The notes under the pieces were generated by a model. It had not been told where the DNA came from. It worked only from the letters and a program-made list of their open reading frames with translations, and did not search any database. DNA of 64,000 bases from Candidatus Micrarchaeota archaeon (GTDB taxonomy: Archaea; Micrarchaeota; Micrarchaeia; Anstonellales; Bilamarchaeaceae): assembly GCA_016926175.1 (NCBI GenBank), contig JAFGPA010000009.1, positions 54 to 64,053 on the forward strand, in the 5' to 3' direction. The position numbers and the translations under genes are program-made. Each line of letters begins with the position of its first letter. The stretch's first letter is position 1. Positions 6,511 to 31,159 of the stretch are shown here, in pieces.

Positions 6511-6511
6511 A

Positions 6512-6931: not shown

Positions 6932-7008
6932 GGCGATGGTTTTAAATTAGGTGCACTATCCTGCAGTCCAAAACTGATTTATAAATCTATTGTAATAAAT
7001 AGATTAAT

Positions 7009-7407: not shown

Positions 7408-8651
7408 GTGCCTTCCTTCCAGCCTGACAGATACTTTTTCTGTTCAGCCGTAAGTTTGTCTTTTTTTATCCCCATTGCCTCCAGCTGGAGCTCTGCAATG
7501 TGATTGTCTATTTCTTCCGGAAGCCTTATTACTTTTGTCTCAAGCCTGTCCCTGTTCCTGACTAAATATTCGCATGCAAGCGACTGGCCGGCAAATGATG
7601 TTGCCATTACTTCTGACGGATGGCCTTCGGCAGCAGAAAGATTCACAAGCCTTCCTTCGGCACAAAGATAAATTTTCCTGCCCCGGACATCATACTCATC
7701 AAGAAACGGGCGTATCCTTCTCTTTTTCCAGAGCCTGTTCATTCCTTCAACGTCAATTTCATTATCAAAATGCCCCGAGTTTGCAAGTATTGCCCCGGAT
7801 TTCATTGTTCTGATATGCTCTGTACGGATAATTTTCTTGTTTCCTGTTACTGTGACAAAAATATCACCTGTCCTGGCAGCATCTGAAACAGGCATAACCC
7901 GGTATCCGTCAAGAACAGCCTGCATTGCCCTGAAAGCATCAACTTCTGTTACAATGACACTGGCACCCATTCCGCCTGCCCTAAGAGCCAGCCCTTTTCC
8001 ACAGTCTCCATAGCCGCAGACAACAAAGGTTTTTCCTGCTATAAGTACATTTGTGGCTCGGAGAATGCCGTCGATAGTGGACTGTCCCGTACCATAATAA
8101 TTGTCCAGCAGGTGCTTTGTTTTGTTGTCGTTGACTGCAATCATGGGACATTTCAATACCCCCTCCCGCTCCATTGCGTGGAGCCTGATTATTCCGGTTG
8201 TTGTTTCTTCGCAGCCTCCAATTACCTTTTCCAGCATTTTCCTGTGTTTTGTATGAAGAGCAGTTACCAGATCGCAGCCATCATCTATTGTGATATTGGG
8301 ACCGGCAGCAATCACGTTTTCTATATATCTGTAATATTCCTGCAGGCTTTCTCCTTTTTTGGCATAAACGCATATCCCTTCCTTTGCAAGTGCAGCAGCG
8401 ACATCATCCTGGGTTGAAAGCGGGTTGCAGCTTGCAATCGCTATTTTTGCCCCGCCTGCCTTCAATGTCCTTACAAGAACCGCAGTCTCCTTTGTGACAT
8501 GCAATGCCAGGCCGATTGTTAATCCTTTGAATGGTTTCTTTTTTGCAAACCTGTCCCTGATTTTTTTCATTATTGGCATGTTTCTTTCTGCATATTCTAT
8601 ATTCAGCATTCCCTGTGCGGCTAATCCAATATTCTTTACTTCGTAATTCAT
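7404..8651 (-). CDS. ahcY: Adenosylhomocysteinase
   Basis: 415 aa. SCNPLSTQDDVAAAL, DDGCDL, EETTTG and the NAD-binding GYGDCGKG motif. Confidence 0.93.
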   Translation of the reverse strand: MNYEVKNIGLAAQGMLNIEYAERNMPIMKKIRDRFAKKKPFKGLTIGLALHVTKETAVLVRTLKAGGAKIAIASCNPLSTQDDVAAALAKEGICVYAKKGESLQEYYRYIENVIAAGPNITIDDGCDLVTALHTKHRKMLEKVIGGCEETTTGIIRLHAMEREGVLKCPMIAVNDNKTKHLLDNYYGTGQSTIDGILRATNVLIAGKTFVVCGYGDCGKGLALRAGGMGASVIVTEVDAFRAMQAVLDGYRVMPVSDAARTGDIFVTVTGNKKIIRTEHIRTMKSGAILANSGHFDNEIDVEGMNRLWKKRRIRPFLDEYDVRGRKIYLCAEGRLVNLSAAEGHPSEVMATSFAGQSLACEYLVRNRDRLETKVIRLPEEIDNHIAELQLEAMGIKKDKLTAEQKKYLSGWKEGT

Positions 8652-8738
8652 GGTATGGATGGAGCTGAAACCATTAAAAAATACGCGTTAGGGCATATAT
8701 CTTTAAATATAGGTCTAATTTAATATATATCCGAGATT

Positions 8739-9095
8739 ATGATCATTGACGGAAAGATATTCTCCAGCAAAAACTTCATTAATAAACTGAGAAAGGAAAA
8801 ATTTTCAATTTTCCTGCTCTGGATGATGTCCAGAAAAGAGCAGCATGGTTACGAAATAATTAAGACCATTAACAAAGATCCTTGCATACCCTCTTTTCCA
8901 GCAAGCAGGATATACCCTCTTTTGCATGATCTTAGCCAGAAAGGTCTTTTATCCCAAAAGAAAATTATGCAGGGAAAAAGGTCACGGAAGATTTACGCCA
9001 TAACTGCAAAAGGCAGGGCAGTTCTTGAGAAGGCAAAGGAACATCTGAATAAAAGCCCGCTTGTGGTGGCTTATATGGAGGATATGTTGAAATGA
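8739..9095 (+). CDS. PadR-family wHTH transcriptional regulator
   Basis: HGYEIIKTI ... RIYPLLHDLSQKGLL ... RKIYAITAKG pattern. 4-nt overlap (ATGA) with the downstream ABC ATPase. Confidence 0.8.
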   Translation: MIIDGKIFSSKNFINKLRKEKFSIFLLWMMSRKEQHGYEIIKTINKDPCIPSFPASRIYPLLHDLSQKGLLSQKKIMQGKRSRKIYAITAKGRAVLEKAKEHLNKSPLVVAYMEDMLK

Positions 9096-9766
9096 AAGAA
9101 GTAATGAAGCTTGAGGATATATCAAAGACATATGTCATGGGTGAAGGAATCAAAGTCCATGCTCTCCTCGATGTTGACCTTGCAATACAGCCAAATTCCT
9201 TCATGTCGATACTTGGCCCGAGCGGATCAGGCAAGTCCACCCTGCTTCATATAATGGGGCTTTTGGAAACCCCTACAGGCGGAAAAAGATACATTGACGG
9301 AATAGAAACAAGCACAATGAATGAGGATGAGCAGGCAAAAGTGAGGGGAGAAAAAATCGGATTTGTTTTCCAGACATTCAATCTTATTCCTTCACTTACT
9401 GCACTGGAAAATGTTGAGCTGCCCCTGATACTCTGCACAAGCAACGGTTTAAAAAGAAGAAAAAAGGCTACCGAGCTTCTTGAAAGCGTTGGCCTTGGAG
9501 ACAGGCTCACCCACAGGCCCGGGCAGCTTTCAGGAGGGCAAAGGCAGAGGGTTGCGATAGCCCGGTCCCTTGCAAATGATCCGGAGATAATCCTTGCTGA
9601 TGAGCCTACCGGAAACCTTGATTCGAAAACAGGCCATGAAGTGCTCGATATATTCAGGGATCTTCACAATGAAGGGAAGACAATAATCATAATAACCCAC
9701 GACCAGTATATTGCAAAGCAGACCAAGAGAATGGTCCGGCTTAAGGATGGTCGCATTATAGAATAG
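9092..9766 (+). CDS. ABC transporter ATP-binding protein (MacB/LolD-like)
   Basis: Walker A GPSGSGKST, Q-loop, signature LSGGQRQR, Walker B ILADEPT, H-loop ITHD. Confidence 0.92.
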   Translation: MKEVMKLEDISKTYVMGEGIKVHALLDVDLAIQPNSFMSILGPSGSGKSTLLHIMGLLETPTGGKRYIDGIETSTMNEDEQAKVRGEKIGFVFQTFNLIPSLTALENVELPLILCTSNGLKRRKKATELLESVGLGDRLTHRPGQLSGGQRQRVAIARSLANDPEIILADEPTGNLDSKTGHEVLDIFRDLHNEGKTIIIITHDQYIAKQTKRMVRLKDGRIIE

Positions 9767-11221
9767 GTGTATGAAATGAAGAGATTGTTTTTGGTTTTGA
9801 TGTTGCTGGGAGTTGCCTTTGCGGGCATCTCGATTGATGATTATACGGTTACCAAACCCGTGTACAAGCCCGGAGAGCCGGGCGTTGCCACTATATCTGT
9901 TTCAAATCCGTTGGGCAGCGAAAGGGTCACCTCAATTACAATGACCGTAAATTCTGCATATGAACTGACAGTGACCAGTTCCCCCAATCTTGCCGATATA
10001 GATTCCGGGGGGTCAGCCATAGTTTCAATCCCCTTTAAGGTAAAGCAGGATGCAAATCCGGGGATTTACACTATAAATGTATTCTTCAGGGGATACAAAA
10101 TGGGGGATAGTGCCGGAACAAGCGTTACATCTGTCAACAGCATTGCCATTCCTATAACAGTTGTAAATGAGCCTGAATTCTCATTCTCGGTTGATAATAA
10201 ACTTCTTACCGGCCTTGACGATGTCAATCTTAGGATAGTCAACAACGGCGGCATTGCAAAAAATGTGAAGATCAGCATTGTCGGGCCTGTTTCACTTTAC
10301 GGGGCAGACCAGATTTATGCAGGTGAAATAACCGGTGAAAAAACAATTCCACTTTCCCTTGATTCCAGAAGCGCAAATGAAGGCGTGGCTGATTTACTGG
10401 CAGTACTGAGCTATCAGGATGCACTTGGAATTCCGCATACTGAAAATGCAACTCTTCGCATGACCATAAGAAAAGAACAGCTGGACATCCTGATTATCCC
10501 GCAGGATAAAATCAACACGCGTGACAAAAGCCAGCTTACGCTGAAAGTAATCAATGAAGGCACAGAAACAATTTCAAATCTCAGGATCAAATTCCCCGGC
10601 GATTCAATTAAAATGATGGACGTAACTGAACTGAAATTCGGAGATCTTCTGCCAGGGCAGAGTGCAACCAAGAATGCCACAATATACACCGAGCTTTCGC
10701 CAGGAGTGAATCTTGTTGATTCCAGGGTGGAATGGATAGAAAAGGATGTTCAGATGGAGGAGCAGAGAAGCATTGCACTGACCGTAACATCTGATGCAGA
10801 TGTCGAGGTGTTTCTTGAGGCAAAGCCGCTGCCGCTTACCCTGGGAGGGGACCATACTATCTCTGTTCTTGTTTCCAATCTCGGGACATTCTCTATTGAG
10901 AATGTTGATGTTGCCATAGAATCCCCAGTGATGAAGTCAATGGACATATCCAACAAACAATATATAGGAGGCCTGCAAAGGGATGATTTCTCAACCGTGC
11001 AGTTCCTTATGCATATTAATGCAACTGAACCCGGCATATACCCGGTCTACCTTGACATTCACTATAGGGACCAATCCGGCATGTGGATGCAAAAGAAAAT
11101 CCAAAAGGAAATAAATATCTACAATGGAACGGCTGATGAAGGCGGAAGCTCTCTGCCAATTCTGATCGGGCTGGGAGTAGTCATAGTGCTTGTATGGCAC
11201 TTCAAGTTCAGGAAAAAGTGA
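9767..11221 (+). CDS. Secreted multi-Ig-like (CARDB / COG1361 S-layer-domain-like) protein with C-terminal TM anchor
   Basis: Signal peptide, repeated beta-rich ~110-aa modules, C-terminal LPILIGLGVVIVLVWHF + KFRKK anchor. Embedded between the ABC ATPase and permease genes. Confidence 0.6.
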   Translation: MYEMKRLFLVLMLLGVAFAGISIDDYTVTKPVYKPGEPGVATISVSNPLGSERVTSITMTVNSAYELTVTSSPNLADIDSGGSAIVSIPFKVKQDANPGIYTINVFFRGYKMGDSAGTSVTSVNSIAIPITVVNEPEFSFSVDNKLLTGLDDVNLRIVNNGGIAKNVKISIVGPVSLYGADQIYAGEITGEKTIPLSLDSRSANEGVADLLAVLSYQDALGIPHTENATLRMTIRKEQLDILIIPQDKINTRDKSQLTLKVINEGTETISNLRIKFPGDSIKMMDVTELKFGDLLPGQSATKNATIYTELSPGVNLVDSRVEWIEKDVQMEEQRSIALTVTSDADVEVFLEAKPLPLTLGGDHTISVLVSNLGTFSIENVDVAIESPVMKSMDISNKQYIGGLQRDDFSTVQFLMHINATEPGIYPVYLDIHYRDQSGMWMQKKIQKEINIYNGTADEGGSSLPILIGLGVVIVLVWHFKFRKK

Positions 11222-11225
11222 CAAG

Positions 11226-12431
11226 ATGAATCTGAAAGAAATGGTTGAATTCAGCATGAATTCACTTTTCCACCAGAAGCTTCGCACCTTCCTTACGGTG
11301 CTTGGAGTTATAGTGGGCATTTCTTCAGTTATTATTCTTGTCGGCCTTGTACAGGGGCTCAAGTCTGATGTGCTTGAACAGCTTGAGGACTTTGGGCCAA
11401 GGACATTCATAATTACCCCTAAAAGCGGAGGCTCATTTGGAGGCTCATCAACATTCATGCCAACTTCCGGGAAGCTTTTTGAAAAAGATTATGAGAGAGT
11501 TAAAAAAATCCCCGAGATAGAAAGCATTACCAAGGTCATTATAGGCCAGACCACAGTCATCTTCAAGAACCAGAGCATTACTGGTACAGTATATGGGATT
11601 GAGGCCGGTTTATTTGATGATACTGTTCCTGTTGAAATAGATGCAGGCAGATTCCTTCAGGATACCGACCTGGGAGTTGCAGGCCTGGGATCCGATGTTG
11701 CATCAGGCTTTGCCCAGGATGTCAAAGTCCAGTCAAGTATCTATCTTGGAGAAAAGAAATTCAAGGTTGTCGGGGTTCTGAAGTCCACAGGCAATTCCTT
11801 TGCACCGATAGACAATGTCATATTTGTTTCCTTTGATGATGCAAAGGAGCTTTTCAACAGATCGCTTCTCGCAAACGAAATTTCAGCCATAAGACTGACC
11901 CTGAAAGAGGGAAGCGATGTCGATGCAGTTGAAGAAAAATTAAACAGTATAATGCTTGCTTCACACAGGGTCAGCGAAGATAACCGGGATTTCACCATCA
12001 TAAGCCCGAAATTCATCAACCAGAGGTTCAGCGAAATTCTTGATCTTATTACATTGTTCCTTGGGGCTATTGCATCCATATCCCTTCTTGTTGGCGGAAT
12101 AGGCATATCAAATACAATGTTCATGAACGTTCTGGAGCGCACCAAGGAAATCGGGACTATGAAAGCCGTAGGAGCAACAACAAAGCAAATCCGCGATCTA
12201 TTTATGATTGAGAGCAGCATCATAGGCCTGTTTGGCGGTGTGCTTGGCCTTTTGGTTGCAGTTCTCACGGGGTTTGCCATAACAGAGCTGTTTGACCTCA
12301 CATTTGTCTTTGACCCTTTTGTCATTGCAGGAGCAGTAGTTTTTTCAATTCTTATCGGCCTTATTTCAGGAACATTTCCGGCAATTGAGGCCGCGAAGGT
12401 TGATCCAATCGTTGCATTGAGGTATGAATAA
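11226..12431 (+). CDS. ABC transporter permease, FtsX/MacB family
   Basis: N-terminal TM, large extracytoplasmic domain, three C-terminal TMs with MacB-type GGIGISNTMFMNVLERTKEIGTMKAVGA. Start set to ATG 11226 (MNLKEMVEF). Confidence 0.85.
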   Translation: MNLKEMVEFSMNSLFHQKLRTFLTVLGVIVGISSVIILVGLVQGLKSDVLEQLEDFGPRTFIITPKSGGSFGGSSTFMPTSGKLFEKDYERVKKIPEIESITKVIIGQTTVIFKNQSITGTVYGIEAGLFDDTVPVEIDAGRFLQDTDLGVAGLGSDVASGFAQDVKVQSSIYLGEKKFKVVGVLKSTGNSFAPIDNVIFVSFDDAKELFNRSLLANEISAIRLTLKEGSDVDAVEEKLNSIMLASHRVSEDNRDFTIISPKFINQRFSEILDLITLFLGAIASISLLVGGIGISNTMFMNVLERTKEIGTMKAVGATTKQIRDLFMIESSIIGLFGGVLGLLVAVLTGFAITELFDLTFVFDPFVIAGAVVFSILIGLISGTFPAIEAAKVDPIVALRYE

Positions 12432-13651
12432 TGAAACTTGAAGATGCGGTTGTCTATGCATTGAAAAACCTTTCGCAGAGAAGCCTGCGCAGCTGGCTTA
12501 CAATAATCGGAATGGTGATCGGGGTAATCGCGATTGTGGTGATACTTTCAATCAGTGAAGGTTTCAACAAGGACATTACAGATCAGCTGGCCTCATTTGG
12601 CGCAGACCAGATGTTCATCTATCCGCTTTCTGATTTTCTTTCCGCGTTCAGCGGAACAGGAGCTCTTCAGCAGACAAGCGGAAAGCTTTTTCAGGCAGAT
12701 GTCGATGACATAAACAATATTCCGGGAGTCAAAAATACTGCACGCATTATCTATGGCCGTGCAAGCCTTTCTTTCAAAGGAAAGAACATCACTTCATTTA
12801 TATTCGGTACAGACCGGGAAATGTTTGAAATGTATGGAGACTACATTGAAGTGGAGTCCGGGAGAATGTTCAAGGAAGGAGAAAGAAACGTTGCATTTTT
12901 TGCCGCAGATGCGGCAACTGACTATTTTGGGAAGGATAAAATTAATGTGGGCAGCGTAATCCAGATAAACGGAAAGAACTTCCGCGTTGTCGGCATCCAG
13001 AAAAAAATCGGCACATCCCTCTCAACATCTGACGACAGCGCCATATATGTGCCTTTTGAGGACGCCCGGGATCTTTTTAAAGGGCAGTTTCTTGCCGATG
13101 AAGTCGGCATGATAATGGTGCAGATCGATGAAGGCTTTGAACCAGACAAAATAAAACAGACGATTGAATACCGGCTTGCCAGCAATCACCGTGTAAAATC
13201 AGACGATCTTGATTTTTCTGTTATTACCTCAGACCAGATAAACGAGATTGTCGGCACTGTTCTTCTTACAGTACAGCTTGTTCTGGCGGCAATAACGCTT
13301 ATTGCTTCTTTTGTTGGTGCCATAGGAATTGCCAACACAATGTTCATGAATGTGCTTGAGCGCATAAGGGAAATCGGAATCCTGAAATCAGTTGGTGCAA
13401 CAAAAAAGGATATTCTTATGATATTCCTTGTTGAAAGTGCAATCATTGGTCTTGCGGGCGGTGTAATTGGCCTGGTGCTTGGATATGGCCTTCTGCAGCT
13501 GCTGATAGAGCTGTTCAATATCCCCGTTTTCCTCAGGCTGAGAATAATAGCATTTGTCTTCGTATTTTCAATAGGGACCGGGGCAGCGGCAGGTTTCCTT
13601 CCTGCATGGCGTGCTGCAAAAATGGATCCTGTTGAGGCATTGCGCTTCTAA
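12431..13651 (+). CDS. ABC transporter permease, FtsX/MacB family (paralog)
   Basis: Same architecture, GAIGIANTMFMNVLERIREIGILKSVGA. Start overlaps the upstream stop (TAATG). Confidence 0.85.
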   Translation: MKLEDAVVYALKNLSQRSLRSWLTIIGMVIGVIAIVVILSISEGFNKDITDQLASFGADQMFIYPLSDFLSAFSGTGALQQTSGKLFQADVDDINNIPGVKNTARIIYGRASLSFKGKNITSFIFGTDREMFEMYGDYIEVESGRMFKEGERNVAFFAADAATDYFGKDKINVGSVIQINGKNFRVVGIQKKIGTSLSTSDDSAIYVPFEDARDLFKGQFLADEVGMIMVQIDEGFEPDKIKQTIEYRLASNHRVKSDDLDFSVITSDQINEIVGTVLLTVQLVLAAITLIASFVGAIGIANTMFMNVLERIREIGILKSVGATKKDILMIFLVESAIIGLAGGVIGLVLGYGLLQLLIELFNIPVFLRLRIIAFVFVFSIGTGAAAGFLPAWRAAKMDPVEALRF

Positions 13652-19977: not shown

Positions 19978-20751
19978 TCATTCTTCATCTTCAGATTCGT
20001 TTTCAGCTTCATTGCCCGGCCTTCCAATTCCTTTTCCAGGTATCTCATCCTGTCCGCCAGTTTTGTTCTGAGTCTGATTATGGATCTGCTCCTGTGTTCT
20101 GTTCTGGGTTTCACTCTGGTTTTTGTCTTCTTTTTCGCCTGGCCTCTCCTGCGTCATTTTACCTTCCCGCTCCTGCATTCTTTCCATGTGCCTTTCCTGG
20201 TTCATTATTGAGTTGTTTAGGGCATTAAGCACTCCTTCCTTTGCCTGTGCAGGTACTTTTTCATATACTCTCTGAAGGACTCTTATGCTGTTTCTCACTT
20301 CATTTTGTACCTGCTGAACATCTTCCTCATCTGCACTGCCTTCGTCAACTGCTTCTTCAATGGCATTTTGTGCGGCCTGGTTTTCCTCATTTTGTTCTGT
20401 GGTTGCCTGCTCAATAAGCCTCAGGGTTTGATTTAATCCTGCCTGATCCCCCTGTGCAGCAAATTTTTGTGCCTTGCCGGAAAGAACATGTGCCTCAACT
20501 GCCCTGAGCATTCCGTATTTTGCATGCTTTCTGGCCTTTTCAGCCTTGTCAAATGTGAAGAATTTATCGACATTCTCAAAAAATCTTTTGAATCCATAAG
20601 TGAATTCGCCCGGAAGTGTCCCTACTTCGCTTTCATTTATTATTATATCCAGTTCATCATTTGTGACATTTACATTCTCTTCACTGTTCTCTGCAAATGC
20701 AGGGACAACAAGCATTCCCAAAGCAACAATCAACAATACAAACGCTTTCAT
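19978..20751 (-). CDS. Secreted acidic coiled-coil protein (DUF5667-like N-terminal motif)
   Basis: Signal peptide MKAFVLLIVALGMLVVPAFA. LPGEFTYGFKRFFENVDKFFTF motif. Gln/Glu/Asn-rich low-complexity C-terminus. Confidence 0.6.
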   Translation of the reverse strand: MKAFVLLIVALGMLVVPAFAENSEENVNVTNDELDIIINESEVGTLPGEFTYGFKRFFENVDKFFTFDKAEKARKHAKYGMLRAVEAHVLSGKAQKFAAQGDQAGLNQTLRLIEQATTEQNEENQAAQNAIEEAVDEGSADEEDVQQVQNEVRNSIRVLQRVYEKVPAQAKEGVLNALNNSIMNQERHMERMQEREGKMTQERPGEKEDKNQSETQNRTQEQIHNQTQNKTGGQDEIPGKGIGRPGNEAENESEDEE

Positions 20752-20831: not shown

Positions 20832-21653
20832 ATGAACAAGGCCGTATTTCTGACACTGCTGCTGCTATCGCTTGGCTTTTCATCTGTCATCTACACTGTT
20901 GATACTGACAGAGCCGGCTTTTCATATGTTACGGTCTCACTTGGGCAGGAAACATCCACAAACGTCAGCCTGCCTGCAGATGCAAACAATTTCCTTATAG
21001 TAGGAGGATCATATCGGTTAATCAACGGCACGTCACTTGTTTCCCCGGGCTTATCCGGCATAACAACATTCTCATTTACCAGTGAAATCATGACATCCAA
21101 GTCAGGTTCCGAATGGAAACTTAATTTTTCCCCGCCTGAAAATTCCAATGTCTATGTTTACATGCCTGGATTTGCAACAATTGTTTCCTCTTCCATACAA
21201 CCTTCAGCTGTTTCGTCAGAAAATTTCAGGACAGTTCTGCAATTTGATTCACAGGAAGCAATTACAATCTTCTACAGGCTTGATGAGGAATATGCTGAAC
21301 CGGAAAGCGATTCGACACTGATTCTTGCAGCTGCAATTATTGCAGCGGCAGTTATTGCCGCCCTGATAATCCGGCAGAGCAGCAAAAAGACCGGGAAAAA
21401 ATCATCATTGCACATTACTCCGGGAAAAAAGGAAATGATGGAAACGTTTAATGAAAATGACACTAAAATAGTTCTTTATTTATTACAGGAAAAAGGAAAA
21501 GCAAAAAGGAATGATCTTGAAAGAAAAACAGGAATAAGCAAATCAAGCCTTGCGATGGCGCTGAACCGTCTTGAAAAAAGAAAAATAATCGAAATTGACA
21601 GGGGGGCAACAACCCATTTCGTCAGGCTTTCCGAGTATTTTCTGAAACTGTAG
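20832..21653 (+). CDS. Membrane-anchored wHTH regulator (signal peptide - ectodomain - TM - cytoplasmic MarR/TrmB-like wHTH)
   Basis: TM LILAAAIIAAAVIAALII + RQSSKKTGKK, then NDTKIVLYLLQEKGKAKRNDLERKTGISKSSLAMALNRLEKRKIIE. Confidence 0.65.
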   Translation: MNKAVFLTLLLLSLGFSSVIYTVDTDRAGFSYVTVSLGQETSTNVSLPADANNFLIVGGSYRLINGTSLVSPGLSGITTFSFTSEIMTSKSGSEWKLNFSPPENSNVYVYMPGFATIVSSSIQPSAVSSENFRTVLQFDSQEAITIFYRLDEEYAEPESDSTLILAAAIIAAAVIAALIIRQSSKKTGKKSSLHITPGKKEMMETFNENDTKIVLYLLQEKGKAKRNDLERKTGISKSSLAMALNRLEKRKIIEIDRGATTHFVRLSEYFLKL

Positions 21654-22080: not shown

Positions 22081-22593
22081 ATGAAAAGGGGGATGATATT
22101 TGCAGGCGGCCTATTGTTAGGGATCCTGGTCACTTATATTGGCACATTGTTTTTCATCGTGCCTGTCAATACTGTTTTTTCTCCGGATGACGGACGTGAA
22201 ATAATCGATCTCATAGATTCTGCAGAAGATTCAATTGACATTGAGATGTATGTCTTTACATCCCGGGATGTTGTTGAAGCTCTGGAACGGGCAAAAAACA
22301 AAGGAGTGGAAATAAGGATCATAGTGGAAAGATCAACCATAAGCGGATCCAACAAGGAAATATTCAATGAACTTTCTGCAAAAGGGTTCAGAGTCAAATA
22401 TGCATCAACAGCATTCCAGCTTACCCATTCAAAATTCATGATCCTTGATGGAAAAGTTGTTTTTGTCGGATCGCACAATTTCAGCAATTCTGCGCTGTAC
22501 AAAAACCGCGAAGCATCAGTAATAATATACAGTGAAAAAACAGCAGGCGAATTCCAGGAAACTTTTAATTATGACTGGAGCCTAGCTTCTTGA
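22081..22593 (+). CDS. Membrane-anchored single-HKD phospholipase D superfamily protein (Nuc-like endonuclease)
   Basis: N-terminal TM. One HKD motif HSKFMILDGKVVFVGSHNFSNSA. Its 170-aa size matches Nuc-type homodimeric nucleases. Confidence 0.8.
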   Translation: MKRGMIFAGGLLLGILVTYIGTLFFIVPVNTVFSPDDGREIIDLIDSAEDSIDIEMYVFTSRDVVEALERAKNKGVEIRIIVERSTISGSNKEIFNELSAKGFRVKYASTAFQLTHSKFMILDGKVVFVGSHNFSNSALYKNREASVIIYSEKTAGEFQETFNYDWSLAS

Positions 22594-23580
22594 AATTACA
22601 TATTTGCCATAAAGCCTTGCAAATACCTTGTATCTTCCGCGTTCAATCTTTGTTATCTGGCCACGGTCCAGCAGCCTTTTTACCAGCGCAGTAACAGGCC
22701 CGAGAGGGATTTTCAGTTCATTTGCAATGTCGGAAACATGGATAAAATCCCTTCTGGAAATTGACAGCAGTATCCTTCTCTCTGCAACGGGCGTTTCCTG
22801 ATACATTTTTCCAAACCATTCGCGGCCAAGCATGTTCATGATATGGGGCAAATATGCAAGATAATGGCCTTTGGATATTACCTTTTCATTCTCCCTTAGC
22901 CTGTCATAGATATGGTGGCAGACGGTTTTGAAAAGCCTTGGGTTGCCCTCGCTGTCATTCATTATTGAGCTGAAGCATTCCTCCCCCATCCTAAGCTCTT
23001 TTTCCAGTGCCTTTTCTACAACCTCCCTTGCCTCATGTTCTGCAAAGGGCTGTAAAACCATGGCTCTTTCTGATTTCATTTCTTTTGTACTGGTCATTAC
23101 AACTGAAATCCCCTGTTCAGCTGCCTTTTCAATTATTTCTATGGCTTCTTTCGCCTTTTTCATCCTGTCGATATCGTCGACAAAAAGAATTGTACCGAAA
23201 TGCCTGGGGCTGCTTGCAGTTTCCAGCAGTTCCCCGAAGCTTTCCGGAGTATTTCTTCTTATCTCCAGATTTGGTATGGCCCTGGTTTCCTGATAGAGCT
23301 TGTCTACCATAGCCTCCATTCCCTCTCCTTTCTCTATTTTAACATAAGGGGCCAGGGCACCCTCTTTTCTGGCAATATGGCTGAAATGCCTGATCAGGGT
23401 GGTTTTTCCTGTTCCCGGTCCTCCAGTTATCATTAATATTCCCGGCTGGCCTGAAACCGCTCCGTTGACGAAAGTGTTAAATATCCTGACTTCGTCTTTT
23501 CTGCCTATAATGTTTTCCGGATCTATTTCATATATCTGGAATGGATTTGGACCTTTCATTAAAATCCCTTTTTCATGCAA
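22582..23580 (-). CDS. AAA-type ATPase with C-terminal wHTH (archaeal ATPase / Orc1-Cdc6-like fold)
   Basis: Walker A GGPGTGKTT, Walker B ILFVDDIDR, C-terminal wHTH VSDIANELKIPLGPVTALVKRLLDRGQI. Confidence 0.75.
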   Translation of the reverse strand: MHEKGILMKGPNPFQIYEIDPENIIGRKDEVRIFNTFVNGAVSGQPGILMITGGPGTGKTTLIRHFSHIARKEGALAPYVKIEKGEGMEAMVDKLYQETRAIPNLEIRRNTPESFGELLETASSPRHFGTILFVDDIDRMKKAKEAIEIIEKAAEQGISVVMTSTKEMKSERAMVLQPFAEHEAREVVEKALEKELRMGEECFSSIMNDSEGNPRLFKTVCHHIYDRLRENEKVISKGHYLAYLPHIMNMLGREWFGKMYQETPVAERRILLSISRRDFIHVSDIANELKIPLGPVTALVKRLLDRGQITKIERGRYKVFARLYGKYVISRS

Positions 23581-23783: not shown

Positions 23784-26700
23784 ATGACAGCCATAAGAAG
23801 TTTGTTTGGAATGTTTTTGTTCATGGTCCTGGTTGGCAGTGTATTTGCTCAGCTGGGCCTTGGTGGCCAGTCTTTCGAAAAGGAAAGCGTGGTCTACTAT
23901 GAAACTGACGCAACACGTCAGGTCCTCACTATCAGTGTGGTGGCATTTGAGCCGGCACAATCCCAGGACGGCACTCAGCTCACTGATACCATAAAGCAAG
24001 AGCTTTTAGCCGAATGCAGGGCAGAAGGAGCAGATAATATCATGGTTTGCCTGCAGAGAAAAGCCTTGGAGAGAACTGCCGCTTCAACTGATTACAGGCT
24101 GGATATGGAATCTCTTCAGGAAGGCACTATTACAGTATATCAGTGGAATGCCATCAGCAAAACATACGTTGTGGTTCCAACATGTACCCAGATTCCAATA
24201 AACAATGTCAGAACGGTAACTGACTCAAGCGGAGAGGCTGTCGACAATTATTATACTACATGTGATCTTTCAGGTGAACTTGAAGGGGCAACCTCGGCAA
24301 GCTTTGTCATTGAATACGAACCCCAGGAAGGTTCAGGCATAGCTCCGAGTACAACCACCTATTCCTATGACAGTGCCCGTGTTGCAGGTACAGATGCTTT
24401 AACCCAGCAGATCAACCAGGTTATAAGCGCAATATCAAGTGGCGGGGCAAACGGAACCCCGGCACTTCCATGTGTTGGCATATTCCTTATTCTGGGTCTG
24501 TTGCTGTCATCACTTTATTTCGCTGGCAAATCACCAGTTTCATTGCTCGATATCACCACACCAAGACTTCCGGCACCCAAGGGAGTAGCTGCAGGCGGAC
24601 AGATGCTCATGCCTTTTGGTTATGCGGAAATGGGAAGAACCACAAAAGCTAAAATGAGGACTGCTGCCGTAGCTGCCGGAGTGACTGCAGCCGGACTTGC
24701 TACAAAAAGCAGAGGAGATGTTGAAAGGCGCCAGCTTGAAAGCCAGGTGGATGCAACAGCAGCCAAAGCAAGCCGTGCGCATGTTGTTTCAGGAGATGTT
24801 GGAGAACAGGCCAATATACAGAAGGCGCTCATAGCAGGAGGAAGAGAAGCTGGAATGAGCCGGGCAGAGCTCGATAAGCTTTCAAGAAGACTTCTCTATG
24901 ACTACGGAGATTCAGAGCACAGGACAGTTGCACAGATACTTGAAAAGCTTAAGGCAAAGGGAGGAAAAAACGCTCTCATGGCAATGACTCTCCAGGACTA
25001 TATAATAGGCCAGAGGCAGCTTAAAACACTTGAAGCAATTACAACCCATCCTGACATAGGAAAAAGAGACTATGTTAGCGGTAAAATCTCAAGTGTCACC
25101 AGCAAGGCATTTGGTGTAAACAGATATGCAATAATCGGCGGTTTTGTTCCGGCCATGGTGGGTTCAACTACAAGAACTGCAAGGCAAATGGTCAGAATGA
25201 GCAAGGCATCAGTTAAACAAGCACCCAACCTGGTCAAAGCAACAGCAAGATCCACAATTGAACTTGTTGGAGGCAAGAGAGCGGTTGAAGAGCTTGAATA
25301 CAAGGCAAAGACTTCCCAGACTGCAGGATGGTTTGCAGGGCAGCTCAAGGAGAATCCTGCGTCTGTCATTGTCGGACAGTCATTCCCGGTAAGCGACAAG
25401 GCAGGATACTTCTACAAGCAGCTCAGGGATGAGGCTCACCACGATTCAATGAGATATCTTTTAAGACAGATCTACAAGAAGATGGGTGTCAAGTTCAATG
25501 TTTCCGAAGAAGAAATGGCGCAGATGGGCCATGTTGACATGGACATCCTGAAGAGATCAGGCTACAAGCCAACAAAAGAAATGCTTGCAATGGAAGCAGA
25601 ACTCAGGGGAATATTAGGAGACAAATCAAAGAGTTTCCTGGAAAAAGTAAATGCACTGACAGCATTTGCAGAGAGATGCGGAGCACACGTAGACCACAAT
25701 GCAATTGCGTTCACACAAAAAGTGGAATCAATACATATGTCTGTGGAAACAGACCATGGCAAGATGCTCCTGCTTCAGGAAGAGCTTGAAAGGCAAAGCA
25801 GGGTCAGGGGCTCAAATGTTCATGACGATGCATTTGTATGCCATATTGGCGGAGACACCCTAAGAGGCCCGGCCATCTGGGAAACTATGGTTCTTCGTAC
25901 AATGATCTACGATGCAGAAAATGGGCACCTCCAGGGAGGTATCCGCGAAGAGCTTCTGTCAGCCAGACTTAACACTGCAAACAGACTTGCAACTCTTGAT
26001 CCAAGCCATGCAGGTGCAATGGAACAGCTTCCGGAACACATGAGAAACCAGGCACAGCTTACGGCAGTTGCAGAAAGAAACAGGTCAGAACTGGTTCAGC
26101 TGTTCTCTGAAGAAGGGAAAGCAGCATTCCAGAAATCCCACAAGGACGGAAAGTCCATGGAGTCTGCTTCACTGCATGAAATAGTTGCATTCATGTATGG
26201 CGGAGGAGTCAAAGAAAAGGCAACCGGACACGTCGATCCAAAAACAGGAAAGATGATGTGGTGGGGTGCAGACCAGGAACACACAGTTCCAAAGGATTAT
26301 GCCCTTGTCGATGTCAAAAGACACTGGGTTGACCACGTAAGTGTACAGGACAACTATGCAATAGGGCAATGGGTGGAGTCCAGGTTCACAAGGAGCTATG
26401 TTCCGGCAGCCCGGGCATCCATTGAAGCAGAGCTCGACAGAATGCCAGGTTCAGCGGCATGGACAGTTGAGGAAAGGGCAAAACAGGCCAAAAAGCTCTG
26501 GATACGGGACGAAATGATCAAGGACTTCGAGCAGAGATTCAACTCACAGTTTGCAAATAATGCCTACGGCGGAACAACAAGGGAAACTGCAAGATTCTAC
26601 AATGGCATTGCAATGGGATTCCTTGCAAAGGCACTGGAAGAAAAGGGACTTTCATCCAATCACCCGGATGCAATGTTCCTTCAGGGCATTGACCACACCA

Positions 26701-28526
26701 ATCCACAGCACATTGGAAAAATGAGAGAACTTCTCTTGCTCCACCGGGATGCATATGAGAAGGTTGCACACAGGGATGTCACATATAATGATGTTGCCAA
26801 GTCCAGCAAGCCAATGGTTATGCTCCATGAAGGTGGATTTGCATACTATCACAAGGGCATGATGCTGTCAGATGCAGACCGTGTTATGGGCGGACAGGTG
26901 TCCATCCGGGATAACAACGGCCAGATGAGGGCATTTGTTCCTGATGATGTTGTAGTGAAATTCGGAGCAAGGGATGACCTTACAGCACAGTTCTACAAGG
27001 CAAGAGGCTCAAAGGATCCAAACGAATGGCATGGATTCCTTGATGCAGCAACCAAATGGACAAAGGAAGGCAACTACAGCTATGAAAAGGAGAAAGTGCT
27101 CGCAGCAGTGCTCTGGGAATACTCCAACAGAACCTATGATTATGAAAGATTCTGGAGCAAGAGTGCAGTTACTGTTGAATCCAAGAGGGAAGTGGCTCCT
27201 GTTGCACCCTCCTTCCTTAGATTCTTTGGTGCTGACGGCCACAAATACGATACAATGATCAAACCATTCAGGGACATTGGTCTTCATGCAGGAGATTATG
27301 TCTCCAAGGTTGCACTTGAAGCAGGGGGACCTGTTCATACAGCATCCTATGAAATCACTCCGACTTCAGAGTACTACAGGCAACACTCATGGAAGCTTGC
27401 AGAGAGGATAATGTCCGGGCAGGACGTTGCCCAGCTCTCAGATGCAGAGAAAGTTGCATACAGGAATTATGCACTTTCTCAGGGTGCATACCACCAGGTT
27501 TGGGACTATTCAATTGACAGGAACCCCTGGAGAACATCCACATCATTCGGAGCTGCACAGTCATGGGCATCATTCTTCCACTTTGGTCCTGCACAGAACT
27601 TTAACGTCAGGGACAACCTCAGGGCATACATGGGCAAGGGAGAGTATACCGGCTTTATGGCAACCCATGGGTTTGCACTTGACCTTGCAGGCAAAATGAT
27701 GAGGCCATACCTTGGGGCAATAAGAGGTATGCAGATGTCTATGCAGGGATATGCATCCAAATGGGACAGCCAGGACAATGCCCTGAGACAATGGAACTAC
27801 ACACAGCCAAGGCTCAGGGAAGCACTTCAGTCACTCAACCCATTCTCATACAGATGGTTCCCAGGCAAGACAAGCGAGAATATTGCCAAGCTCAATGTCT
27901 TTGGCGGTTCACTTGAGCAGCACCAGCTTGCAGGTCCTGAATATATGGCCGGCCTCAAACAGGCTCCACAGGACATATTCCTGCAGAGAAAGGGTGTCTA
28001 TGCCTCGGCAAGAACTGGCGAAGCAAACCCGGCAGCGTCTTTCTACAACTACAGACACGAACTCATGTACGATGCTCCAATGGCAGAGTATATGATCAGG
28101 CAGAAGGACGCATCCTTCATGTACGACAAGAAAGTACAGGATGCAGCAATGAACAACACCCAGAGAAGGACAGTGTCTGCAGAAGCACTTGCAATCAGAA
28201 GGGAAGAGGAACTCAGGGGATTCGGAATTATGCAGAACCCGCTTTACGGCTGGGCCAACCCGATAGCATTCCTCTGGCACGCACCTCTTCCGATGATGCC
28301 ATCATCCCTTACGCCAAAGGACATAGTGGCAAATGCAGTGAGAAAGCACAAGTATGGCCAGGGCGGATCCTGGAATGACACAATGAACCAGCTTGGGCAG
28401 AACATATCCAAGGGAACCAAGGATATACTCTCGCCACACATGCTTCACAGGACAGTTTACTGTCCCAGCTGCGGCAGAAGCGGCTACAGGGGAGCAAGAT
28501 GCGGCTGCGGCAAGCCTCTCTATTGA
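23784..28526 (+). CDS. Orphan giant membrane-anchored protein with C-terminal zinc ribbon
   Basis: Uninterrupted 1580-codon ORF. Signal peptide, ~200-aa ectodomain, TM ALPCVGIFLILGLLLSSLYFAG, >1300-aa unassigned region, terminal CPSCGRSGYRGARCGCGKPLY. Confidence 0.85.
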   Translation: MTAIRSLFGMFLFMVLVGSVFAQLGLGGQSFEKESVVYYETDATRQVLTISVVAFEPAQSQDGTQLTDTIKQELLAECRAEGADNIMVCLQRKALERTAASTDYRLDMESLQEGTITVYQWNAISKTYVVVPTCTQIPINNVRTVTDSSGEAVDNYYTTCDLSGELEGATSASFVIEYEPQEGSGIAPSTTTYSYDSARVAGTDALTQQINQVISAISSGGANGTPALPCVGIFLILGLLLSSLYFAGKSPVSLLDITTPRLPAPKGVAAGGQMLMPFGYAEMGRTTKAKMRTAAVAAGVTAAGLATKSRGDVERRQLESQVDATAAKASRAHVVSGDVGEQANIQKALIAGGREAGMSRAELDKLSRRLLYDYGDSEHRTVAQILEKLKAKGGKNALMAMTLQDYIIGQRQLKTLEAITTHPDIGKRDYVSGKISSVTSKAFGVNRYAIIGGFVPAMVGSTTRTARQMVRMSKASVKQAPNLVKATARSTIELVGGKRAVEELEYKAKTSQTAGWFAGQLKENPASVIVGQSFPVSDKAGYFYKQLRDEAHHDSMRYLLRQIYKKMGVKFNVSEEEMAQMGHVDMDILKRSGYKPTKEMLAMEAELRGILGDKSKSFLEKVNALTAFAERCGAHVDHNAIAFTQKVESIHMSVETDHGKMLLLQEELERQSRVRGSNVHDDAFVCHIGGDTLRGPAIWETMVLRTMIYDAENGHLQGGIREELLSARLNTANRLATLDPSHAGAMEQLPEHMRNQAQLTAVAERNRSELVQLFSEEGKAAFQKSHKDGKSMESASLHEIVAFMYGGGVKEKATGHVDPKTGKMMWWGADQEHTVPKDYALVDVKRHWVDHVSVQDNYAIGQWVESRFTRSYVPAARASIEAELDRMPGSAAWTVEERAKQAKKLWIRDEMIKDFEQRFNSQFANNAYGGTTRETARFYNGIAMGFLAKALEEKGLSSNHPDAMFLQGIDHTNPQHIGKMRELLLLHRDAYEKVAHRDVTYNDVAKSSKPMVMLHEGGFAYYHKGMMLSDADRVMGGQVSIRDNNGQMRAFVPDDVVVKFGARDDLTAQFYKARGSKDPNEWHGFLDAATKWTKEGNYSYEKEKVLAAVLWEYSNRTYDYERFWSKSAVTVESKREVAPVAPSFLRFFGADGHKYDTMIKPFRDIGLHAGDYVSKVALEAGGPVHTASYEITPTSEYYRQHSWKLAERIMSGQDVAQLSDAEKVAYRNYALSQGAYHQVWDYSIDRNPWRTSTSFGAAQSWASFFHFGPAQNFNVRDNLRAYMGKGEYTGFMATHGFALDLAGKMMRPYLGAIRGMQMSMQGYASKWDSQDNALRQWNYTQPRLREALQSLNPFSYRWFPGKTSENIAKLNVFGGSLEQHQLAGPEYMAGLKQAPQDIFLQRKGVYASARTGEANPAASFYNYRHELMYDAPMAEYMIRQKDASFMYDKKVQDAAMNNTQRRTVSAEALAIRREEELRGFGIMQNPLYGWANPIAFLWHAPLPMMPSSLTPKDIVANAVRKHKYGQGGSWNDTMNQLGQNISKGTKDILSPHMLHRTVYCPSCGRSGYRGARCGCGKPLY

Positions 28527-28558: not shown

Positions 28559-31159
28559 ATGAGATTTCCTGTTTTGCTAATTATAATGATCTTTATTTCC
28601 GGTTGCCTGCAGAGTATAGGCTCTGAAGAATTCAGAAATGACTACATCCGAAACCTGCACAGAACTCCAATAAATGATCCTTCACAGATTGAAGAATGCA
28701 AAATAGGAAGCTGCTATTGCATGGTGTGCCAGAACGGAAGTCCGATATGGGGGGGCATATGGAACAATCTTGTTGGCGGCAGATGCTACATGGAAACGGA
28801 ATGCACGCCCGAACGGGCAATGGAGCTGAGGAACAGCACAGCGACACCTGATCTTTCAATAAGAAATTTCATGCTTGGCCAGGGACCGTCCATTGGCGAC
28901 TTTTCCGATGCCAATCCCTATTGCTCCAACAAACTTTCAATGGCAGTGGAATGGCTTGTGGGGAATGCTGACAATGCCTATGAAATGCCTGATGCAGGCA
29001 GGGCACTATGCGTGCTGAGCAGGGAAATAATTCCGGTTTATATTCTTTACAGTGAAGGAGAAAATATCAATGCTGCCCGTGCAGGGGAGATTGGCCGTAG
29101 CCTTGCAAATGACGGCCAGAGCCTTTACCAGGGCTTTCTTACTCCCGGGCCGGTCGGTCCCAATATTGTTGTTACCGAAATCGATTACGATATTTCTGAT
29201 GCAGGCCAGATAATCGAGCAGATTCGTGCAGTGAAGAATGCATGCGGCGATGCCTGCTGGGTTGCTGTTGCACCAAAAATCGGTGATACCGAAGCGCTTG
29301 ATGCAGTGATGGCAAGTGCAGGGGATCAGGTTGATGTCATTGCATTTGGAGTTAATGGAAATTATGTTGATGCCTGCAGTTCTGGAAGAATAAGCTCGCA
29401 GAAGATGATGAACCAGGTTGTCAATTTCACTGAATATGCAGTTTACACCTATGGAAAGCCAGCTTTAATACCCTATATAATGTTTGATCCTGATACCACT
29501 GACATAAACGGATGCGTCTGGAAGGAAAGTGATGTGACAGCGGCATATGGCGCATTCATACCCGGAGGAATCCAGCGCCTGAGAAAAATCGGAGTGATCG
29601 GCTTTGCACCATATTCATTTAACTCAACCAGCTTTGGCTCTGTTTCCAATCCGCTGAAATGTGCCAACTGTGCAATTGCTTCAAATGAGCAAAGGCTCAG
29701 GGCATACTATGGAGCATGCCAGCAGTATACAAACATTTCAGGAACGCGGCCATCATATGGCAACGAGATTCTTTATCCAAATGAATCAGCGGGCTTCTGC
29801 GATTTCGGTACAAGCATTGAGGGCCTGCTCAGGGAGACCAGCTATGCCAGTGTGGGCGGAAACCGGGATTATCTTTCTCCAAATGCGCCGGAACTCAGGC
29901 CTGTCGGCACTCCATCATTCAGATGCAGTTCCTGCCTTTTGAGCAATATTACCTCCAATCCTGTTGCGCCGTTTAATTTTGGAGGCACAGCATCTGTTGA
30001 TTCTTCAAGTTTCCACGGCTGCATTGAATACCAGGATGAAATAAATGCATGGGCAGATGCAAGAAACCTTGATCCCATGCTTGTACGTGCATTTGCATTG
30101 ATTGAAAGCAATCTTGATCCAGGTGCGGCTGCAAGAGTGTGCAAGGAAGGATATACAGGCACAGGTCCTGACGGAAGACCATGCTTTGAAGCAAGCCCTG
30201 CACAGGATGAATGCTATTCAAATGCATACCGGATAATGGACGATCCGTCTGGAACATACGATTTTGCCGATGCTCCGGATGCAGAAGACCTTGATGAAGA
30301 CCCAGACTGGAAATGGTGCGGCCTTGGTTTTATGCAGTCACTGGAGCCTCCCTATACATTGTGGCCGGCATCTGTAAATCCAAGCGGAGAGCCCGGCGAG
30401 TTTGCGTGGGCATGCGATGATGCGGGAATCTGCTCTGAAAATCTTCTCGTTGTTGCAAGGGGATGCGCGGCGGAAACAGATCCTCCCGGGCAGTTCAATC
30501 CATTCAATATTTCACATTCACTGTGCATTGGAACATACAAGATGCAGCAGGGTCTGAACGCTGCAAGAGGAATAGTCCGCCAGATGAAAAGCGACGGCCT
30601 TCTTGTAAACAGCAATGCTGAAAACGAGGAAGTGCTTGCAGCTTATATAATGGCCCAGATGTACGGCGGTTCCTGGGGGATTACAGGAAGTAGTATGAAA
30701 ACAGTGAATGGCGTTCTTCCCCCATGCGGAAGCGAAACCTCTGCCGGGGACTGCTTCAGAAGCCTGTTTGCAGAGAATATGCGATGGAACAGGGACGCCT
30801 GCGTGGAAGACAGCGGCGGGGAACTTCCCTGGCAGTGCAGTGAAGAAGGCGTGCCAAGATGGCAACCTCCGGAATACTGTTTTGGGGAAAGCGATCCTGC
30901 TGTTTTCTGGGACCAGTGCATCCAGCCATTCCTGACAACTCCTAACAATCATGGAAATGTAAAAATGAAGCAGTTCTTTGCTCTGCAGAGTTGCAGTACC
31001 AATCTTTGTCCTGACGGCCTGAAAATGCTCAACGATATTTGCACTCCTGATGAAAGCGGAACACTAAATGAAGAGCTGTGCGAAGGCCCTGGAAGGCCGA
31101 GAATTCCTGAATCAGGAAGCTACTATGCACAGGCTGCAGAGCAGGCACAAGACAACTGA
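28559..31159 (+). CDS. Cys-rich secreted lipoprotein with alternating beta/alpha N-domain and lysozyme-like (GH23 / SLT-like) C-terminal signature
   Basis: Lipobox-like FISGC. LVRAFALIESNLDPGAAA (catalytic-Glu-like ES at nt 30104-30109), GLGFMQS (about nt 30320-30340), AYIMAQMYGG. Starts 33 nt after the giant ORF. Confidence 0.7.
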   Translation: MRFPVLLIIMIFISGCLQSIGSEEFRNDYIRNLHRTPINDPSQIEECKIGSCYCMVCQNGSPIWGGIWNNLVGGRCYMETECTPERAMELRNSTATPDLSIRNFMLGQGPSIGDFSDANPYCSNKLSMAVEWLVGNADNAYEMPDAGRALCVLSREIIPVYILYSEGENINAARAGEIGRSLANDGQSLYQGFLTPGPVGPNIVVTEIDYDISDAGQIIEQIRAVKNACGDACWVAVAPKIGDTEALDAVMASAGDQVDVIAFGVNGNYVDACSSGRISSQKMMNQVVNFTEYAVYTYGKPALIPYIMFDPDTTDINGCVWKESDVTAAYGAFIPGGIQRLRKIGVIGFAPYSFNSTSFGSVSNPLKCANCAIASNEQRLRAYYGACQQYTNISGTRPSYGNEILYPNESAGFCDFGTSIEGLLRETSYASVGGNRDYLSPNAPELRPVGTPSFRCSSCLLSNITSNPVAPFNFGGTASVDSSSFHGCIEYQDEINAWADARNLDPMLVRAFALIESNLDPGAAARVCKEGYTGTGPDGRPCFEASPAQDECYSNAYRIMDDPSGTYDFADAPDAEDLDEDPDWKWCGLGFMQSLEPPYTLWPASVNPSGEPGEFAWACDDAGICSENLLVVARGCAAETDPPGQFNPFNISHSLCIGTYKMQQGLNAARGIVRQMKSDGLLVNSNAENEEVLAAYIMAQMYGGSWGITGSSMKTVNGVLPPCGSETSAGDCFRSLFAENMRWNRDACVEDSGGELPWQCSEEGVPRWQPPEYCFGESDPAVFWDQCIQPFLTTPNNHGNVKMKQFFALQSCSTNLCPDGLKMLNDICTPDESGTLNEELCEGPGRPRIPESGSYYAQAAEQAQDN

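Follow-up and report, generated by a model that had tools for sequence, protein, structure and literature searches.

The subject of this report is a gene (28559..31159, plus strand) in a stretch of 64,000 nucleotides, hereafter called the window, from a Candidatus Micrarchaeota metagenome-assembled genome (MAG; GenBank assembly GCA_016926175.1, contig JAFGPA010000009.1). The gene starts with ATG, ends with TGA and codes for a Cys-rich lipoprotein of 866 amino acids (aa), which is probably an extracytoplasmic, membrane-tethered and bifunctional glycan-cleaving enzyme. Its N-terminal half resembles the barrel of glycosidases and its C-terminal half contains a split SLT domain. The source genome is that of a Candidatus Micrarchaeota (DPANN) MAG and the archaeal host is confirmed. 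For instance, the 'hypothetical protein JXA56_01230' of a Candidatus Micrarchaeota MAG shows 100% identity to the window protein, and the window carries archaeal marker genes (TFIIB, topoisomerase VI A/B, PNO1-type KH protein) and further housekeeping genes (ArgRS, AdoHcy hydrolase, PGK, topoisomerase I). A model that read only the DNA letters had previously proposed a Cys-rich lipoprotein with a split lytic-transglycosylase-like signature. All peptides quoted in this original prediction were found in the protein, namely FISGC (residues 12-16), CKIGSCYCMVCQ (47-58), LVRAFALIESNLDPGAAA (508-525), GLGFMQS (588-594) and AYIMAQMYGG (695-704).

The C-terminal half contains motifs resembling those of family-1 lytic transglycosylases (LTs), in their usual order. 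Conservation was counted among 41 close homologs and in a wider set of 185 relatives, in which the denominators vary from column to column. Motif I consists of a Glu that closes a helix and a Ser directly after it, and is represented by E516-S517. The original prediction had made its case dependent on the conservation of the putative catalytic Glu, and E516 is indeed present in 41/41 close homologs and in 160/172 (93%) of the wider relatives, while S517 is present in 151/172. In motif II, G590 is found in 165/167 and Q593 in 162/170 relatives. The window protein reads G-F-M-Q at this site and the family consensus is G-L-M-Q, which is the canonical form of the motif. Downstream, N647 (160/169), P648 (169/169), F649 (163/169), Y702 (147/167) and G704 (150/166) are conserved as well.

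Profile searches point to the same family. When the 41 intact homologs were scanned singly, 24 of them weakly matched PF01464 (SLT; best E 3e-4), and no other family recurred. The intact protein is missed by standard profiles because the SLT domain is split by two inserts of ~54 and ~39 residues. After cutting out residues 530-583 and 605-643 from 10 diverse members, 10/10 spliced sequences matched SLT and no other family, with E-values down to 3.1e-8. Seven of the 10 scored above the Pfam gathering score of 21.3 bits (best 33.6 bits), and single alignments covered the PF01464 profile positions 3-101 of 117. As controls, neither of the inserts, nor the C-terminal extension nor the N-terminal half matched any Pfam family. 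For one member (P0021), segment 1 alone yielded 21.6 bits, the segments in the wrong order 25.6 bits and in the right order 33.6 bits. Thus, most of the SLT signal comes from motif I, to which the other two blocks add collinearly. Moreover, a profile of the C-terminal half retrieved eight chains from the PDB sequences (E 0.4-1.6), seven of which are LTs (EtgA and six Slt chains) that align on the E-S motif (...DP.lvRA.i..ES.f...).

Structural comparisons were made with AlphaFold2 models. The full-length model was built on 41 sequences, and residues 470-866 were modelled separately (predicted local distance difference test, pLDDT, 89.5) because the full-length search with Foldseek was dominated by the N-terminal barrel. 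The highest-probability fold matches of the C-terminal model in the PDB were MltE (TM-score on target 0.50-0.51), MltF, Slt and the type VI secretion system muramidase Tse3. Among viral models (BFVD), the top named matches were LT_GEWL/SLT proteins including the PRD1 transglycosylase (E 0.028, probability 0.98). Furthermore, a stand-alone homolog of the C-terminal domain carries the independent precomputed tag 'SLT (faint)'. From the spliced sequences, the EtgA/Slt profile matches and the LT fold matches, whose E-values are marginal (0.03-0.5), we conclude that residues ~488-712 form a genuine, strongly diverged GH23/SLT fold that is split by two inserts, as had been proposed. It had also been claimed that each gap between the motifs is several-fold longer than in bacterial SLT domains. 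If the canonical lengths are derived from the alignment ranges of the spliced sequences on PF01464, this holds for the first gap, which spans 77 residues from E516 to Q593 instead of ~18 profile positions (~4x). The second gap, from Q593 to A695, spans ~100 residues instead of ~50-55 positions and is only ~2x longer.

Several results weigh against the SLT assignment. The intact 866-aa protein has no match in Pfam, NCBIfam, PHROG or the PDB sequence models, and full-length phmmer and profile searches against PDB sequences returned only noise (ribose-binding protein, Fab, an uncharacterised protein). The spliced window protein itself reached 17.1 bits (E 0.004) and thus stayed below the gathering score. 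Motif III of family-1 LTs is A-Y-N-x-G. The Asn is absent from the corresponding region of the family, which has the consensus A-A-Y-I-A-x-x-x-Y-x-G and reads AAYIMAQMYGG in the window protein. Ala-Tyr and a Gly are present in it. Moreover, the C-terminal model has no significant fold match in the PDB (E ≥ 0.44), P450s interleave with its matches there, and the E-value of 0.028 obtained with BFVD is not significant by itself. The SLT motifs might therefore have been matched by chance only, and the C-terminal half might be a helical Cys-rich domain unrelated to SLT, as the silent intact protein, the fold E-values > 0.01 and the origin of most sequence signal in one ~40-residue segment could suggest. 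However, we regard this explanation as highly improbable: SLT is the sole recurrent family in the 41 scans and the sole match of all 10 spliced sequences (E to 3e-8), the match extends collinearly over 99/117 profile positions, and independent searches of PDB sequences, PDB folds and viral folds all yield LTs. In addition, the conserved residues are those of the family-1 motifs.

The N-terminal half has the (beta/alpha)8 fold of clan GH-A, as judged from Foldseek and from the secondary structure of the model. The barrel has 85 matches in the PDB at E ≤ 1e-3 (best E 2.4e-6, probability 1.00), the leaders of which have E-values of 2.4e-6 to 3e-4 and TM-scores on target of 0.5-0.57. The matches comprise GH53 beta-1,4-galactanases, a GH5/GH26-type mannanase, GH79 glucuronidases, GH10/GH26 xylanases and GH5 cellulases. 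Hence, the earlier suggestion of a (beta/alpha)8 glycosidase-like barrel is supported by the matches to GH53, GH5, GH26 and GH79, and the six peptides that had been taken for hydrophobic strands or helices coincide with the modelled beta-strands 158-164, 202-205, 233-237, 260-262, 302-308 and 346-351. Conserved residues are located at the C-terminal ends of strands (Q108, Y164-S165, E207, D243, D259, N/D266, Y306, D/E310 and Y352). In clan GH-A, the acid/base Glu follows beta4 in an N-E motif and the nucleophile Glu follows beta7. With the beta4/beta7 numbering inferred from the secondary structure of the model, the placement of E207 and D310 would correspond to this '4/7' arrangement of catalytic carboxylates. 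E207 is present in 41/41 close homologs and in the wider set there are 148/157 Glu plus 5 Asp; position 310 is acidic in all 41 close homologs. What speaks against a clan GH-A enzyme is that E207 is preceded by Thr, giving T-E rather than N-E, that the beta7 acid is mostly Asp rather than Glu (35 D, 6 E), and that the N-terminal half has no Pfam or NCBIfam match, either alone or in the 41 homologs. Membership in a defined glycoside hydrolase (GH) family was thus not found in these two libraries. The N-terminal half resembles a 4/7 glycosidase in its modelled structure and its GH family membership is unproven.

It is also conceivable that both domains have lost catalysis and act today as modules for glycan binding or adhesion, or that the protein is a structural component of the envelope. 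The diverged SLT motifs with the missing Asn and the lack of the N-E signature in the barrel would be in line with such a loss, as would the replacement of Glu516 by Q, D, N or S in 12/172 relatives and the sequence TQS, with Gln for the catalytic Glu, in the stand-alone relative P0196. Nevertheless, we consider the loss of both activities improbable, given that E516 is invariant in the close homologs and kept in 93% of the 172 relatives, that E207 is kept in 94% and that position 310 is always acidic. Moreover, conservation is clustered at strand ends and at the C-terminus of a helix, as is usual for active sites. The known S-layer protein of Micrarchaeota differs in being nearly sulfur-free and in containing S-layer domains (10.1101/2021.04.28.441871). 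For the same reason, an identity of the window protein as the Micrarchaeota S-layer protein was rejected.

The protein carries a Sec-type signal peptide with a lipobox. After a single N-terminal hydrophobic segment, residues 13-16 read I-S-G-C and fit the archaeal lipobox pattern [L/V/I][A/S/T/V/I][G/A/S]C at the end of the signal peptide (PMC12462473). The lipobox Cys is retained in 140/142 relatives, and G15 and C16 are at least 90% conserved among the 41 close homologs. Cys16 is therefore the predicted site of lipid attachment, which agrees with the lipoprotein originally proposed. Since the signal peptide ends in the lipobox, lipid-modified Cys16 is most likely the first residue of the mature protein. 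Lipidation may be carried out by a pathway of the AliA type (arCOG02177), the machinery of which is reported in DPANN archaea generally (PMC12462473).

The richness in Cys that had been noticed in the sequence is substantial, with 38 Cys in 866 residues (4.4%) vs 0.8% in the 15 other open reading frames of the window that were compared. Most Cys columns are invariant in the family. In the N-terminal knot, for example, C52, C57 and C76 are invariant and C47, C54 and C82 are at least 90% conserved, and the model places short strands at residues 52-58 and 76-79. The C-terminal extension is modelled with high pLDDT up to about residue 800, and its residues C748, C787, C812 and C817 are invariant. 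Four pairs of variable Cys are gained or lost together in 39-41 of the 41 sequences (522-567, 552-587, 723-732 and 828-841), which suggests that they are disulfide partners. The pairs 522-567 and 552-587 would staple insert 1 to the SLT core, and this tie by two Cys pairs fits an oxidising, extracytoplasmic location. Taken together, the ~37 Cys other than Cys16, many of them conserved and several paired in gain and loss, indicate a probably disulfide-stapled extracellular protein. The window protein has lost the 522-567 pair, with Gly and Tyr at these positions (codons 30122-30124 and 30257-30259), and it has the rarer 828-841 pair (codons 31040-31042 and 31079-31081).

The lipoprotein belongs to a family that is widespread in Micrarchaeota. 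A word-indexed search retrieved 52 homologs at 25-61% identity; the named ones are from Micrarchaeota or Bilamarchaeum, except for one labelled Ca. ainarchaeum sp., and none of the 52 has a Pfam domain on record. An exhaustive profile search detected 301 clusters at the 50% identity level (E ≤ 1e-3), 194 of which have E ≤ 1e-30, and the ~850-aa architecture is common to most of the 301. Some relatives of ~400 aa contain only the C-terminal half behind their own lipobox, which has A-S-C or I-G-C, and a Pro/Ala-rich linker. These stand-alone forms locate a domain boundary near residue 480. With the C-terminal profile, the word-indexed homolog search found only 3 proteins, none of them with names or bacterial links. 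When one genome per GTDB species was scanned, 45 loci were recovered, most of them labelled Micrarchaeota and a few just 'archaeon' or 'ainarchaeum'.

In 44 of these 45 species loci, the lipoprotein gene is directly preceded on the same strand by a gene for a giant membrane protein, which has 1580 aa in the window. The two genes are separated by 32 nucleotides in the window and overlap in the locus of a relative with 25% identity (L003). The giant gene and the lipoprotein gene are thus a phylum-wide two-gene cassette, which is accompanied by an AAA/winged helix-turn-helix (wHTH) gene upstream of the giant gene in 37/45 loci (tblastn) and by topoisomerase VI on the downstream side in 33/45. According to its hydropathy, the giant protein consists of a signal peptide, an ectodomain of ~190 residues with four invariant Cys, a transmembrane helix (residues 222-249) and ~1330 cytoplasmic residues with a C-terminal zinc ribbon (CxxC...CxC). 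It has 60 homologs, the named ones again from Micrarchaeota, Bilamarchaeum or Ca. ainarchaeum. Direct Pfam, NCBIfam and PHROG scans and a profile search gave no domain or PDB match, only zinc-ribbon noise. The giant protein is better conserved than the lipoprotein encoded downstream and contains the invariant juxtamembrane motif YFAGKSP.SLLDITTPRLPAPKG. At L011 and L032, a gap of ~1.4 kb lies between the two genes. It had been speculated that the lipoprotein opens a wall locally for its giant neighbour. This idea fits poorly with only ~190 residues of the giant protein lying outside, and wall opening for its export was dropped. A phage or mobile-element origin of the lipoprotein gene was also rejected in view of the housekeeping flanks, the conserved synteny and the absence of PHROG matches.

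As to the mechanism, the mature lipoprotein would sit at the outside of the cytoplasmic membrane, in the compartment beneath the S-layer. In the SLT domain, the single conserved carboxylate E516 would act as a single acid. The domain most likely cleaves the beta-1,4 bonds of a murein-type N-acetyl-amino-sugar glycan in a lytic-transglycosylase or lysozyme-like manner, because one candidate catalytic Glu occurs together with family-1-type motifs (ES.F.P.A, GLMQ and AY..G). The barrel may cleave a further glycosidic linkage, either in this polymer or in one associated with it. The lipoprotein and giant genes are probably co-transcribed, and the enzyme is likely to cooperate with the small ectodomain of the giant protein. 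Most likely, the enzyme would cut an amino-sugar polymer of foreign or shared origin on the cell surface, namely murein of neighbouring or host bacteria or a similar glycan, in the service of contact or sugar scavenging. We lean towards action on foreign amino-sugar polymers as the physiological role, in line with what has been proposed for the LT proteins of Woese- and Pacearchaeota (PMC8204110, PMC9723730). However, some points speak against this role. A lipoprotein that is anchored beneath the S-layer has no obvious reach to the wall of another cell. The phylum-wide vertical conservation beside housekeeping genes looks more like a core function of the cell envelope than a predation tool. 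Finally, 'Ca. Scheffleriplasma hospitalis', a cultivated host of Micrarchaeota, is bounded by one membrane only and lacks a further surface polymer (10.1101/2021.04.28.441871).

With the same folds, the enzyme could instead remodel the archaeon's own envelope, acting on an endogenous or host-derived glycan in the gap of 20-25 nm that separates the S-layer from the membrane. Candidate substrates would be S-layer or N-glycan chains or an unrecognised amino-sugar polymer, and the giant protein could link cleavage to events in the cytoplasm, for example growth or division, like bacterial transmembrane regulators of wall hydrolases. The membrane anchor holds the enzyme near the own membrane, the cassette is found in 44/45 species representatives at a fixed position by topoisomerase VI and other housekeeping genes, and the partner has ~1330 cytoplasmic residues and an invariant juxtamembrane segment. 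Moreover, Micrarchaeota have a glycosylated S-layer and a pseudoperiplasm, with the S-layer of the cultured Micrarchaeum lying over a space of 20-25 nm and its Thermoplasmatales host lacking a surface polymer (10.1101/2021.04.28.441871). However, no polysaccharide wall is known in Micrarchaeota. The S-layer paper describes one membrane and an S-layer only (10.1101/2021.04.28.441871). The annotated part of the window contains no glycan-synthesis genes, and the regulatory analogy is based on gene adjacency alone. Remodelling of the own envelope is a strong rival but the less likely role in our view, and we prefer action on foreign or shared polymers.

A more far-reaching proposal is that the giant protein and the lipoprotein form a Micrarchaeota-specific trans-envelope machine, in which the ~1330-residue cytoplasmic domain controls the cleavage of extracellular glycans. 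We regard this as speculative and doubtful. If it were true, the universal presence of the machine would mean either that Micrarchaeota own a so far unrecognised envelope amino-sugar polymer or that many of them depend on murein-walled bacterial partners. The latter would contrast with the wall-less Thermoplasmatales host of the cultured species.

The features of the lipoprotein gene and of its neighbours are compiled in the table, and some further observations concern related proteins and the surroundings of the cassette. Stand-alone split-SLT proteins of ~400 aa are P0180 (locus L005, 6149-7393), P0173 and P0196, and the gene at L005 does not adjoin a giant gene. In the Micrarchaeota-like genome at L011 (MAG DeMMO3_13), tblastn matches to the lipoprotein extend over ~5 kb (6001-11080), which suggests a tandem duplicate of the lipoprotein gene. 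P0222 (L006, 8001-11285; 1094 aa) matches the N-terminal barrel profile in four stretches and is encoded next to Laminin_G_3 and GH2_C-like proteins, representing another architecture made from the same barrel. Near the cassette, the window encodes a PLD-like protein of 170 aa (PLDc_2; 22081-22593, plus strand), and at L003, the locus of the most distant relative, the PLD-like gene lies immediately upstream of the giant gene. Between TFIIB and the cassette lie a DUF5667 protein (19978-20751, minus strand) and a protein (20832-21653, plus strand) in which only a C-terminal TFIIE-alpha/TrmB-type winged helix is recognisable. Further upstream, positions 9092-13651 (plus strand) encode an ABC ATPase, a Cys-free protein of 484 aa with no Pfam match and two MacB_PCD/FtsX permeases in a row. 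These form an export cluster of the MacB/LolCDE type, and the same archaeon also produces lipobox proteins.

Table 1 Features of the lipoprotein gene and its neighbours (positions in the window)
Feature	Position	Strand	Basis or remark
Cys-rich lipoprotein gene	28559..31159	+	JXA56_01230 in source MAG; model pLDDT 85.4, predicted TM-score (pTM) 0.85
Signal peptide and lipobox I-S-G-C, residues 1-16	28559..28606	+	sole hydrophobic segment is residues 1-23 (hydropathy)
N-terminal Cys-rich knot, residues 47-82, six Cys	28697..28804	+	conserved Cys columns, modelled strands
(beta/alpha)8 barrel, clan GH-A-like, residues ~99-400	28853..29758	+	Foldseek, modelled strand/helix alternation
E207 codon, candidate acid/base (VVTE)	29177..29179	+	after strand 202-205, assigned beta4
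D310 codon, candidate nucleophile (PYIMFD)	29486..29488	+	after strand 302-308, assigned beta7
SLT core segment 1, residues 488-529, helices up to candidate catalytic E516-S517	30020..30145	+	motif I
E516-S517 codons	30104-30109	+	end of modelled helix 506-517
Insert 1, residues 530-583, Cys-containing, acidic	30146..30307	+	separates E-S and G-L-M-Q motifs
SLT core segment 2, residues 584-604: strand, GLGFMQS (motif II), LEPPYTFWP	30308..30370	+	motif conservation
Insert 2, residues 605-643, Cys-rich	30371..30487	+	length varies among homologs
SLT core segment 3, residues 644-712: N-P-F, two long helices, AAYIxxxxYxG (motif III-like)	30488..30694	+	conservation
C-terminal Cys-rich helical extension, residues 713-866	30695..31156	+	no Pfam match
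1580-aa single-pass membrane protein gene	23784..28526	+	directly upstream of lipoprotein gene
AAA/Orc-Cdc6-like ATPase with wHTH, divergent	22582..23580	-	Pfam AAA_16, AAA_22, HTH_24

Micrarchaeota live in obligate or near-obligate symbiosis, and beyond a few acidophilic co-cultures little is known about their surface biology and host range. A phylum-wide surface enzyme that standard pipelines label 'hypothetical' and that has a domain of the murein-cutting type provides a testable handle on what these archaea touch or digest. Activity on murein would argue for bacterial partners or prey, and activity on another substrate would extend GH23 chemistry to an archaeal substrate. The giant 1580-aa protein becomes a priority target by association because it is always adjacent to the lipoprotein gene. 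Moreover, the family illustrates a blind spot, as domains with long disulfide-stapled inserts evade profile searches and can be recovered by family-wise scanning and excision of the inserts. LT proteins of other DPANN archaea are already known, and nothing reported here contradicts established biology. New here are the cryptic, insert-split and disulfide-stapled SLT domain that is missed by standard annotation, the joining of this domain with a GH-A-like barrel downstream of a lipobox, and the presence of the protein in all 45 species genomes recovered by the scan, with the giant gene as a cassette partner in 44 of them.

Among the known systems, family-1 LTs (PF01464; E. coli Slt70, MltE and MltF, and EtgA) are similar to the C-terminal domain in several respects. 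In both, a helix ends in Glu-Ser, the ES.F.P.A, G-L-M-Q and A-Y-..-G blocks occur in the same order and the modelled fold appears lysozyme-like and helical (TM-score 0.50 to MltE, with a marginal E-value). The bacterial Mlt enzymes are likewise anchored as lipoproteins. The reaction of family-1 LTs is the cleavage of MurNAc-beta-1,4-GlcNAc with 1,6-anhydroMurNAc as the product. Unlike family-1 LTs, the family described here is split by the two inserts, which conserved Cys pairs would cross-link with the core, it has a Cys-rich extension of ~150 residues and a motif III lacking Asn, and it occurs in an archaeal host with no known murein. The N-terminal barrel shares the (beta/alpha)8 fold and the carboxylates after the assigned beta4 and beta7 with the clan GH-A endo-glycanases (GH53, GH5, GH26). 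It differs from them in having T-E for N-E, mostly Asp at beta7, no GH profile membership and a six-Cys knot ahead of the barrel. Phage virion-associated and endolysin LT_GEWL/SLT proteins such as the PRD1 transglycosylase P7 are the best fold matches in the viral library, although marginal (E 0.028). In contrast to these, the gene described here is chromosomal, has housekeeping flanks and encodes a protein with no PHROG match. Extracellular GH23/SLT proteins have also been found in DPANN archaea and were interpreted as acting on bacterial walls (PMC8204110, PMC9723730), including the large murein-like LT proteins of Woese- and Pacearchaeota (fam00969; PMC8204110), and one Micrarchaeota MAG is listed with GH23 in a CAZy table (PMC8561730). 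By description, the large LTs have up to ~3000 aa, are detectable with Pfam or CAZy, are patchily distributed and are specific to small-genome Woese- and Pacearchaeota, whereas the window protein has 866 aa, is missed by standard annotation, is fused to a TIM barrel and is anchored by a lipobox.

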